From the NCBI GenBank assembly GCA_038077975.1, contig JBBUGM010000011.1, positions 22,038 to 86,037 of the forward strand: DNA of 64,000 bases. The letters run 5' to 3'. Every line of letters starts with the position of its first letter. Within the stretch, counting starts at the first letter, position 1. Source of the stretch: Patescibacteria group bacterium (lineage in GTDB: Bacteria; Patescibacteriota; Minisyncoccia; UBA6257; 2-01-FULL-56-20). Position numbers and translations under genes: made by a program. The notes under the pieces were generated by a model. It was not told the origin of the DNA and did no database searches. It worked only from the letters and a program-made list of their open reading frames with translations. Positions 33,930-35,191 of this stretch are shown here, piece by piece.

Positions 33930-33960
33930 AAGCTCCGCTTATAAGCGGAGCTTTTCGTTT
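33930..33960 (+). terminator. intrinsic terminator
   Basis: AAGCTCCGCTTATAAGCGGAGCTT plus TTCGTTT. Confidence 0.75.
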
Positions 33961-33962
33961 GG

Positions 33963-34033
33963 TGGACCTACGGGGAATTGAACCCCGACCTCCTCCATGC
34001 CATGGAGGCGTAATGCCGTTTTACTATAGGCCC
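33963..34033 (-). tRNA. tRNA-Ala (anticodon GGC)
   Basis: Acceptor GGGCCTA/TAGGTCC with G3:U70. Anticodon arm CCTCC-ATGGCAT-GGAGG. CCA encoded (33960-33962). Confidence 0.9.
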
Positions 34034-34034
34034 G

Positions 34035-34107
34035 TACCCCCAGCAGGAATCGAACCCGCATCTTTCCCTTAGGACGGGATTGCTCTTATCCATTGAGCTA
34101 TGGGGGC
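34035..34107 (-). tRNA. tRNA-Arg (anticodon CCT)
   Basis: Acceptor GCCCCCA/TGGGGGT, D arm GCTC..GAGC, loop GTCCTAA, T arm GCGGG-TTCGATT-CCTGC. Only 1 nt separates it from tRNA-Ala(GGC). Confidence 0.8.
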
Positions 34108-34727
34108 ATATTAACTTCTGAGGAAACACTTTTTATTATAGACTGTATAACGTTAAGCAAGTGACCACCCTTTTTGACTGCAATCCTGCATATTCCATAA
34201 GTTGTTTTCCCTCTTTTGCCGCCATCGTTATAGTACGCCCGAATTTTGTTTTTGTTAACACCGGTACATCTTGACCAATATTTTACGCATCGGTTACGAT
34301 TCATCCCGGTGAAGTATCTCACGGTAATTGATAGCGCGTTTCTATTTACGCCGTAACGCGCGCGCAAAAGTTTTATATACATTTTCACCATTTCGCCATT
34401 TGTATTGGTGAAAATACATCCTCTTTTTGAATTGCCCTCTGCCCAATATAGCATCGCGAGAATGACACAATAGTATTTGTTGGGGCCAGCCATAATTTTA
34501 TCTGCTTCTAAGGCCGCTTTTTCTCTTTCAGCTTGAGCACGCTTACGACTTCCCCCTTGTTTTCCTTTTAAAATCTTGCTATATTTTGGAGAAATCTTGA
34601 GTCGGTGGACATGGTGCCAAACTGTTGTTTTTGGAACAGAAAACATTTTGACCAACTCGTTGATACTGTAACCGCGCCTCCGCAATCTCTTTAGAGATTC
34701 TACCTTTTGCCTTGAGTGTATATGCAT
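34098..34727 (-). CDS. HTH domain protein with a LAGLIDADG-like core (putative homing endonuclease)
   Basis: 209 aa. N-terminal HTH (GYSINELVKMFSVPKTTVWHHV). A single LYWAEGN motif followed by an alpha/beta core. The last 10 nt overlap tRNA-Arg(CCT). Confidence 0.55.
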   Translation of the reverse strand: MHIHSRQKVESLKRLRRRGYSINELVKMFSVPKTTVWHHVHRLKISPKYSKILKGKQGGSRKRAQAEREKAALEADKIMAGPNKYYCVILAMLYWAEGNSKRGCIFTNTNGEMVKMYIKLLRARYGVNRNALSITVRYFTGMNRNRCVKYWSRCTGVNKNKIRAYYNDGGKRGKTTYGICRIAVKKGGHLLNVIQSIIKSVSSEVNMPP

Positions 34728-34835
34728 TATTGTTGTATAATTATATCAATATCCTAGAAACAGCAAATACGTCCTTGTCATCACTTGGGGTTTCTAATGT
34801 AGGGCCTATAGTTAAATGGCATAACACCTCATTTG

Positions 34836-34978
34836 TCCCGACTCGACATTTTTAATATGAACGAAGTCGAGGATTCTCGATAGTTCAGGTGGGCCCATAG
34901 CTCATCTGGTAGAGCGCCACATTTGCAATGTGGAGGTGACCGGTTCGAGTCCGGTTGGGTCCACCTGAACTATCGGAA
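34836..34978 (+). mobile_element. 143-nt insertion inside the outer tRNA-Ala, carrying a complete tRNA-Ala(TGC)
   Basis: Bounded by the outer tRNA halves. Contains a 6-bp hairpin. A 13-bp perfect helix flanks the inner tRNA. Confidence 0.5.
34891..34963 (+). tRNA. tRNA-Ala (anticodon TGC)
   Basis: Acceptor GGGCCCA/TGGGTCC with G3:U70, D arm GCTC-ATCTGGTA-GAGC, anticodon arm CCACA-TTTGCAA-TGTGG, T arm ACCGG-TTCGAGT-CCGGT. No encoded CCA. Confidence 0.9.
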
Positions 34979-35000
34979 CAATGAGGAATTGGCAGTTCGA

Positions 35001-35019
35001 TTCTGCCTAGGTCCACCAA
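35001..35019 (+). repeat. direct repeat copy 1 (TTCTGCCTAGGTCCACCAA, the tRNA 3' end)
   Basis: Identical 19-mer recurs at 35173-35191. Confidence 0.85.
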
Positions 35020-35172
35020 CTAAATTTATCCAACTTCTCGGTAGGTAAATTTAGTTTTATGATTTTGCAGAATCGAACGGGAAAGGGGTCGGGAAAACGG
35101 AAGTTTTCCCGTGGTGGAAGACTTGAAACCGCTGGGTTTCAAAAAATTTTGCATCCGCAAAATTTTGTGAGC

Positions 35173-35191
35173 TTCTGCCTAGGTCCACCAA
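35173..35191 (+). repeat. direct repeat copy 2 (orphan tRNA 3' end)
   Basis: Identical to 35001-35019. No tRNA body precedes it. Confidence 0.85.

Follow-up and report, generated by a model that had tools for sequence, protein, structure and literature searches.

In the 64,000-nucleotide (nt) stretch of a Patescibacteria genome analysed here (contig JBBUGM010000011.1 of assembly GCA_038077975.1; hereafter the window), an open reading frame (ORF) of 209 amino acids (aa) runs into the 5' end of a tRNA-Arg(CCU) gene, and nearly all of its related loci keep a same-strand tRNA gene directly 3' of the ORF. Judged from its sequence and its setting, the ORF would be a free-standing gene of the homing-endonuclease type that resides in a tRNA gene's 5' leader, a reading to which we give somewhat better than even chances. 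The features of the gene and its partner are as follows, numbered from the first letter of the window:

34098..34727, minus strand: the 209-aa ORF (P0001), with an ATG start and a TAG stop, from the ORF listing.
34034..34107 (ARAGORN) or 34035-34107 (Rfam), minus strand: tRNA-Arg(CCU), the partner tRNA downstream of the ORF.
33960..34033, minus strand: tRNA-Ala(GGC), found by ARAGORN and Rfam, a single base from tRNA-Arg(CCU).
34593..34709, minus strand: predicted helix-turn-helix (HTH) region, about residues 7-45, weak for the query with HTH_23 and HTH_7 and placed by the family profile.
34101..34490, minus strand: C-terminal domain, residues 80-209, without a Pfam family and LAGLIDADG-like by profile.
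34434..34451, minus strand: LYWAEG motif, residues 93-98, with E97 as the putative catalytic acid.
34740..34748, minus strand: extended -10 promoter-like element TGATATAAT, picked out by eye about 13 nt 5' of the ATG.

Because the ORF ends at 34098 and tRNA-Arg(CCU) spans to 34107, the two genes share 10 nt (34098-34107), the end of the ORF doubling as the start of the tRNA, and tRNA positions 8-10 (U8-A9-G10) supply the TAG stop. A first, sequence-only reading of this DNA had already placed the last 10 nt of a 209-aa ORF inside tRNA-Arg(CCU), and the ARAGORN and Rfam coordinates agree with it. That reading had also put the ORF start 75 nt from an interrupted tRNA-Ala gene; the adjacency, on the opposite strand, stands, but the spacer to the outer tRNA-Ala(UGC) measures 74 nt (34728-34801). 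Contigs from two samples of one study span 33982-34927 with zero differences, so the arrangement is not an assembly artefact, and no ORF-less contig was seen among the DNA contigs matching the locus. The tRNA-Arg(CCU) of this locus is the sole one found in the 88.6%-complete genome, the other match being a tRNA-Arg(UCU). CCA is encoded by both tRNA-Ala genes and not by tRNA-Arg(CCU).

The 209-aa ORF is a real protein-coding gene under purifying selection. A word-indexed protein search returned 130 relatives, about 210 aa long and 40-56% identical, which all come from Patescibacteria or unnamed bacteria and lack a precomputed Pfam domain, and an exhaustive search at an expectation value (E) of <=1e-3 gave 1091 representative clusters (50% identity), which is a lower bound on the size of the family. 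Residues M92, L93, W95, E97, G98, N108, R137, W151, D168, G169, G178 and C180 are invariant in 35 aligned members (alignment A1). Across 80 diverse full-length representatives (A5) the invariant residues are R16, G19, E97, G98, N108, W151 and G178, with Y94, W95, K100 and D110 near-invariant, and E97 and G98 are invariant also in 45 sequences of the isolated C-terminal domain drawn from many clades (A2). The best-conserved block of the family is LYWAEGN (residues 93-99). The ratio of nonsynonymous to synonymous substitution rates (dN/dS) is 0.06-0.15 in seven of the eight close pairs for which it could be computed and 0.64 in the eighth, whose sequences are nearly identical. The cluster count, the invariant residues and the low dN/dS values uphold the earlier claim of a genuine ORF.

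The gene belongs to an unannotated Patescibacteria family that has no Pfam model. Among the members listed, the two relatives that carry a source name are both annotated as hypothetical protein, and searches of PHROGs, PADLOC, Pfam and NCBIfam gave weak HTH-type matches only for the protein. A phage collection searched with tblastn held no match to the family. The ESM Atlas model of the protein has a predicted local distance difference test score (pLDDT) of 0.85, and its nearest neighbours are all unnamed family members, some of them with HTH_23. The stored gene call (P0002) is 182 aa long and starts 27 codons later, omitting 34647-34727 and truncating the HTH; the family alignment supports the longer 209-aa start, with the whole HTH, as the probable one.

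The linkage of this family to tRNA genes was surveyed by scanning one genome per species, which turned up 210 stretches that encode a relative; 80 loci were retained. A same-strand tRNA lies directly 3' of the gene in 79 of these 80 loci (Arg-CCU in 70, Arg-GCG in 4, Trp-CCA in 3 and Lys-CUU in 2), and the sole exception, L079, stops at a contig end. Since 79 of 80 related loci keep it, the ORF-tRNA geometry at the window is not a product of chance. Homologues that never sit near tRNA genes would have counted against the sequence-only reading, and the survey of their neighbourhoods found the reverse. In the 74 loci whose frame stops <=120 nt from the end of the match, the gap between ORF and tRNA ranges from -45 to +68 nt, and 31 of the 74 ORFs overlap the tRNA. 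Overlaps of 10, 15, 23-24 and 38-39 nt recur, at points where the frame meets a stop within conserved tRNA sequence. The upstream neighbour of the gene varies across loci.

Paralogues carry the survey to other tRNA identities. One in the window's own genome (L082, G000:C16:1046-1705), 29% identical to the query, ends 7 nt before a tRNA-Gly(GCC) at 1713-1784. Twenty further paralogue frames were taken from relatives of the window's genome, and in 15 of them the gap to the tRNA is -38 to +45 nt (Trp, Gly-GCC, Gln-UUG, Lys-CUU, Ile-UAU, Asn, Arg-UCU and Thr-UGU). One of the remainder runs through a tRNA-Trp, one is cut by a contig end, and three precede a Phe-like tRNA that ARAGORN missed because a group I intron lies inside it, recognised by Rfam in L107 and L110 and by eye in L108. 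These introns lie in the anticodon loop of the Phe-like tRNA (L107 1300-1625, L110 420-658, L108 about 390-670). On a tree of 97 rows, the 10 tRNA identities need nine changes, the minimum possible, and shuffled labels needed 26 changes in each of the ten shuffles printed of the 200 run. Kin share tRNA labels, and the agreement between tree and labels is therefore a description and not a test. The 209-aa ORF is placed in the Arg-CCU clade of this tree, and each tRNA identity corresponds essentially to one clade of the family.

Genes for recognised nucleases are found in the same position. Nine free-standing LAGLIDADG_3 ORFs were examined in genomes related to that of the window; five border directly on the start of a tRNA-Asp or tRNA-Tyr gene, overlapping it by 10, 15 or 38 nt. 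The canonical LAGLIDADG_3 genes are:

L129, L131, L132 and L133: before tRNA-Asp.
L130: before tRNA-Tyr.
L157, and L160 at 378-1412: before tRNA-Ser-UGA.

The tRNA-Asp type of LAGLIDADG_3 has 3413 related proteins, some of them annotated as LAGLIDADG homing endonucleases. An HTH plus LAGLIDADG_3 gene of 341 aa lies 20 nt before tRNA-Ser(UGA) in genomes G100 and G106, and the canonical combination of HTH and LAGLIDADG is seen in L160 (341 aa) and L130 (277 aa). Genome G001 (L091, G001:C7 1-384) has a GIY-YIG ORF (Pfam E 7e-13), 87 aa long when counted from the ATG, that shares 10 nt with the 5' end of a tRNA-Ala(GGC); a second copy of a 22-nt 5' fragment of this tRNA is found upstream of the ORF (363-384). 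Both the HTH plus LAGLIDADG architecture and the stop-in-tRNA geometry thus exist canonically. The query shares with these Patescibacteria LAGLIDADG_3 and GIY-YIG genes the same niche and the same stop-in-tRNA overlaps. The canonical LAGLIDADG_3 proteins differ in that they pass the Pfam cut-offs and have two LAGLIDADG domains, whereas the query has one divergent domain and no Pfam match.

The predicted N-terminal HTH, which had been claimed earlier from the query, is weak in the query itself (HTH_23 at E 0.0075, below the Pfam cut-off, with HTH_7 weak too) and clear at the family level. In a Pfam search HTH_7 is matched by 21 of 35 members, several distant members exceed the Pfam cut-offs for HTH, and the A5 profile matches the HTH structures of the Sleeping Beauty PAI subdomain, SinR and Hin. 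For the C-terminal domain, the A2 profile was searched against solved proteins at E<=10 and gave 13 matches, the top nine of which are all I-DmoI (best E 7.9e-4). The A5 profile, which is broader than A2 and shares members with it, matched I-DmoI at E 3.6e-4; for both profiles I-DmoI is the sole non-HTH solved protein matched below E 0.01. In the A2 alignment the family pattern LYWaEGsK...FtNsDp stands opposite LYVAEGDK...IWNKN, the second motif of I-DmoI, whose E117 we take to be catalytic. We call the protein LAGLIDADG-like because the profile match is reproducible but short and because the acid E97 is invariant; membership of the LAGLIDADG superfamily is plausible, not established. The earlier description of the motif as LAGLIDADG-like survives insofar as LYWAEG aligns with the catalytic motif of I-DmoI at E<1e-3 with two profiles, but the curated models are unmatched. 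No longer, fused version of the C-terminal domain scored, which is weak evidence.

The distribution of the family is patchy. Any member at all was found in 20 of the 41 genomes around the window's genome, with 0 to 6 matches per genome, and the same-genus genome G001 (97% complete) has none. Among these 41 the Arg-type gene is confined to the window's genome (E 2.8e-94, against 3.2e-30 for the next best), which makes it 1 of 25 genomes in its own family, and the gene occurs in 2 of the 41 genomes of G062's family. Among the 26 genomes of G065's genus, where absence was judged at E<=1e-8, two have the Arg-type gene, 13 have other clades only and 11 have no member. ORF-less sites with conserved flanks were seen in four genera, as presence/absence polymorphism at a syntenic site: in G066 and G100 compared with G062; in G107 and G110 compared with the ORF-bearing G061 and G109, two further genomes of that genus being interrupted by contig breaks at the site; in G126 and G131 compared with the ORF-bearing G065 and G112; and in G137 and G138 compared with G063. 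The tRNA-Arg(CCU) gene is retained in the ORF-less relatives looked at. In G137 the ORF is absent and tRNA-Arg(CCU) was not detected at the site.

Decaying copies, of the kind that a cycle of invasion, decay and loss leaves behind, were also found. In G106 about 50 nt of the ORF 3' end remain beside the tRNA (47/51 identical), and the rest of the spacer is filled by a different family member in the opposite orientation, which abuts tRNA-Ala(GGC). The remnant in G138 consists of the last ORF bases and the first 40 nt of the ORF-linked tRNA allele, ends in the anticodon loop and lies 45 nt upstream of a complete, different tRNA-Arg(CCU). Frames are broken in 3 of the 80 loci, and copies with internal stops occur among the genomes around the window's genome and in G065's genus.

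Linked and unlinked tRNA alleles were compared in the genus of G062. The tRNA-Arg(CCU) next to the ORF in G062 shares 96% identity with the one next to the remnant in G106, and the two ORF-less alleles do not differ at all (100%); between ORF-linked and ORF-less alleles, identity drops to 78-79%. All but one of the differences between the two classes fall in nt 1-46, that is, in the 5' acceptor strand, the D arm and the whole anticodon stem, and the 3' third is nearly identical between them. As internal controls from the same four genomes, tRNA-Ala(UGC) is 100% identical and tRNA-Arg(CCG) 95-99% identical. In the same genus, tRNA-Ser(UGA) is 99% alike within and 74-76% alike between classes, and its split tracks the canonical HTH plus LAGLIDADG_3 gene 5' of that tRNA. 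The allele pattern in this genus looks like a conversion tract, or an immune allele, with its breakpoint near the anticodon arm. The sequence-only reading had proposed nuclease-driven turnover of tRNA genes; the patchiness, empty sites, remnants and allele swaps speak for it, but the interrupted tRNA-Ala on which it had leaned is not the conserved partner.

Within the genera of G061 (loci L001, L163, L164, L166 and L167) and G065, tRNAs of the same identity diverge by 20-35%, with identities of 64-71% for tRNA-Ala(GGC) and 63-85% for tRNA-Arg(CCU). Divergence of this order within a genus is far above expectation and suggests frequent replacement of tRNA alleles.

If the ORF is a homing-endonuclease-type gene of the tRNA leader, its protein would cut ORF-less alleles of its cognate tRNA locus, acting probably as a homodimer with the HTH adding specificity. 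Recombinational repair would then carry the ORF into the cut allele, in many cases along with some 40-46 nt from the 5' end of the linked tRNA. A homodimer would act on a near-palindromic site; by reasoning rather than from data, the arms of a tRNA offer such near-palindromes by nature, with asymmetry perhaps contributed by the HTH. Transcription of ORF and tRNA together would start at a promoter upstream of the ORF. Release of the tRNA 5' end by RNase P is established biochemistry, and cleavage at tRNA +1 would free tRNA-Arg(CCU), so that the insertion would cost the host little. At this locus the same cut would also strip the stop codon from the ORF mRNA.

A promoter would not fit between the ORF and tRNA-Arg(CCU), and transcription of the sole tRNA-Arg(CCU) probably runs through the ORF, with RNase P releasing the tRNA; tRNA-Ala(GGC) probably shares the transcription unit. 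The position of TGATATAAT, if it serves as a promoter, implies a nearly leaderless mRNA. This element is unlisted in the promoter consensus scan and no -35 is present; the scan reported a weaker minus-strand site within the ORF (34258-34230).

Several results weigh against the homing-endonuclease reading, and one group of them concerns the domain. The profile search proposed with the sequence-only reading went against it, in that no Pfam or NCBIfam model for LAGLIDADG or WhiA matched the query at E<=10. Among 35 members no LAGLIDADG model was matched at E<=1 in the 25 families shown of 50, none of 47 distant members matched one at E<=0.01, and LAGLIDADG_3 was found in 1 of 45 isolated domains, at E 0.18. 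A comparison by hhalign with 33 canonical LAGLIDADG_3 proteins recovered the same motif register at a non-significant E of 0.13, and comparisons with thin local LAGLIDADG_3 alignments gave a probability of about 1% and nothing significant. The I-DmoI alignment spans just 45-66 residues, from the motif helix through the strand and helix that follow it, and the ESM Atlas searches named no LAGLIDADG cluster among the neighbours.

The other group concerns the behaviour expected of a homing gene. The empty site of G131 carries a tRNA-Arg that is 97% identical to the ORF-linked allele of G065; in G062's family, identity to the ORF-less allele forms a continuum; and in G061's genus all tRNAs of the cluster are 63-78% alike, a divergence so general that this genus has no clean control. 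The tRNA-Arg of the window is 90% identical to that of the ORF-less G001 and 80% identical to that of the closest ORF-bearing relative, and it looks native. The sequence at the ORF-tRNA junction is not conserved between loci. A tRNA 5' fragment upstream of the ORF reached a z-score above 3 in just 3 of 78 loci, and a duplicated fragment as a general feature was rejected on that count. Finally, purifying selection and lineage-level synteny also fit a function for the host.

That last point leads to the alternative of a domesticated DNA-binding protein, in which the HTH and a LAGLIDADG-derived domain would bind the gene's own promoter or the tRNA gene and regulate transcription of the ORF-tRNA operon without cutting, in the manner of WhiA. 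An HTH domain, a gene always in one transcription unit with the tRNA, strong purifying selection and lineage-level synteny of the flanking tRNAs would all suit such a regulator, which we nevertheless consider unlikely: the Arg-type gene is present in 2 of the 26 genomes of one genus, 11 of which lack any member, and tRNA-Arg(CCU) persists without the ORF in the relatives looked at. Remnants and broken copies, and the presence of known nuclease genes in the same position, count against it as well. The catalytic acid is lost in non-cutting LAGLIDADG relatives, whereas the putative catalytic glutamate is invariant in 80 diverse members of this family. Slightly less probable again, in our estimate, is a selfish cassette of the ORF and its own tRNA allele that replaces resident tRNAs by recombination or addiction, the protein helping recombination, binding DNA or killing rival alleles rather than homing in the classical way. 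Such a cassette would accommodate G137, where the site lacks the ORF and no tRNA-Arg(CCU) was detected, the linked-allele fragment beside a complete resident tRNA in G138, linked alleles strongly unlike the ORF-less ones, the hypervariability of tRNA alleles within genera, and the window's tRNA-Ala(UGC) interrupted by a second complete copy. It sits less well with the LAGLIDADG-like motif being retained, with linked and resident tRNAs that share their 3' third as a conversion tract predicts, and with a tRNA-Arg in the window that seems native by its 90% identity to G001; in addition, the surroundings of the ORFs showed neither terminal repeats nor target duplications.

LAGLIDADG maturases exist, and a derivative of that kind might bind RNA and aid the folding or processing of the downstream pre-tRNA. 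The clade of L107, L108 and L110, which precedes a tRNA with a group I intron, and the inferred co-transcription of protein and tRNA are in keeping with this; yet the partner tRNAs are intact by ARAGORN in 93 of the 97 tree rows, with no intron seen, the distribution is patchy, and the HTH is of the DNA-binding transposase/resolvase type, all of which make an RNA-binding helper improbable. A chance open frame between tRNA genes would be compatible with the missing Pfam family, with the two source-named relatives called hypothetical protein and with the shorter stored gene call of 182 aa; the 1091 clusters, the invariant residues and the dN/dS of 0.06-0.15 make it the least credible of these explanations, and it was rejected on conservation.

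On the other side of the ORF, the plus strand carries an unusual tRNA-Ala locus with the following parts:

34802-34835 and 34979-35018, plus strand: the interrupted outer tRNA-Ala(UGC), found by ARAGORN, with its anticodon loop split.
34836-34978, plus strand: the insert in tRNA-Ala(UGC), 143 nt placed after anticodon-loop position 35.
34891-34965, plus strand: a complete second tRNA-Ala(UGC), inside a 13-bp helix.
35020-35172, plus strand: a structured element of about 150 nt, 3' of tRNA-Ala, with direct repeats at 35001-35019 and 35173-35191.

The tRNA within a tRNA folds as a nested double cloverleaf (z-score -6.5) and is the only tRNA-Ala(UGC) locus found in the window's genome. A genome of another family, G034 (L143), has the same insertion, 83% identical and at the same anticodon-loop position, with three compensatory pair changes relative to the window in the 13-bp helix that flanks the inner tRNA. 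The outer tRNA type is uninterrupted in at least seven relatives (G001, G039, G014, G021, G057, G049 and G008). A group I intron was considered for the interrupted tRNA-Ala(UGC) and rejected, as there was no Rfam match at E<=1. The locus may be a mobile, intron-like "replacement tRNA" element, and a theme possibly shared with the ORF is that of breaks in the anticodon region of a tRNA repaired from foreign copies. The link first drawn between the ORF and the interrupted tRNA-Ala is not borne out: the consistent partner of the family is the downstream same-strand tRNA, here Arg-CCU, and the insertion in G034 comes without a family-like ORF. In the 1.86 kb available there, none of nine ORFs of >=60 aa is family-like, as judged by eye with no profile run and on a contig that ends soon after.

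The repeats that border the element of about 150 nt are 19 nt long and duplicate the tRNA 3' end (TTCTGCCTAGGTCCACCAA). In G001 and G004, copies of the element with 75-88% identity immediately follow tRNA-Ser, -His, -Asp, -Gly and -Arg on the 3' side, and elements resembling it were seen by eye after tRNA-Ala in L092 and L093. It has no Rfam match, and its appearance is that of a small non-autonomous element that targets tRNA 3' ends.

By sequence, the closest solved protein to the query is I-DmoI (structures 1b24, 2vs7 and others), with which it shares a motif helix ending in an acid and a glycine, then a lysine, then a strand with an asparagine. Single-motif LAGLIDADG enzymes such as I-CreI act as homodimers, and the query domain, at about 130 aa, fits the size of such single-motif enzymes and behaves like a mobile element as they do. 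It departs from LAGLIDADG enzymes in having no curated-model match, in a similarity limited to the first 45-66 residues of the domain, in a very short stretch between motif and strand, and in an added N-terminal HTH; unlike the LAGLIDADG genes of introns and inteins, its gene stands free in a tRNA leader. WhiA, a transcription factor with near-universal vertical inheritance, has two degenerate LAGLIDADG domains without catalytic acids and a C-terminal HTH. The query resembles it in combining an HTH with a LAGLIDADG-type domain, and differs in having one domain, an N-terminal HTH, the invariant E97, a patchy distribution and no match to the WhiA model of Pfam.

The closest described case is SegB of phage T4, which is a free-standing GIY-YIG homing endonuclease within the T4 tRNA gene cluster, has a recognition site that includes a conserved tRNA motif, and drives the preferential inheritance of itself and the surrounding tRNA genes (PMC2330249). 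The two are alike in being free-standing genes among tRNAs, and the linked tRNA allele here appears to travel with the ORF. The query belongs to another nuclease-like family and is cellular (Patescibacteria), and its family has a fixed place at the tRNA 5' end and many clades, each with its own tRNA. Within the same phylum, homing endonucleases are reported inside group I or group II introns of 16S and 23S rRNA genes (PMC10714607). Those selfish genes too are associated with stable-RNA genes, whereas the query occupies the leader and not the mature RNA. The literature searched, which did not cover subscription journals, yielded no account of Patescibacteria nuclease genes that flank tRNA genes.

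Taken more broadly, these observations raise the tentative possibility, to which we give rather less than even chances, of an undescribed radiation of homing endonuclease genes in Patescibacteria that would be specialised on tRNA 5' leaders, with one clade per tRNA species. Such genes would borrow tRNA transcription and RNase P processing and, together with canonical LAGLIDADG and GIY-YIG genes, would cause tRNA alleles to be replaced in cassette-like fashion, the breakpoints falling around the anticodon arm. A radiation of this kind would explain both the hypervariable tRNA alleles within genera and the interrupted tRNA-Ala(UGC) of the window.

A family of at least 1091 clusters without a Pfam model is an annotation gap. 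If the reading of the ORF as a homing-endonuclease-type gene is true, the tRNA leader would be a new niche for selfish nuclease genes, in which the tRNA serves as both target and homology arm and in which RNase P processing makes an insertion nearly harmless. Were tRNA genes constantly attacked and replaced in this way, this would matter for phylogenies and annotation based on tRNAs and for the question of how mobile DNA is tolerated in essential genes that have a single copy. The clades of the family could then be a natural library of compact sequence-specific nucleases, each for a different tRNA gene.

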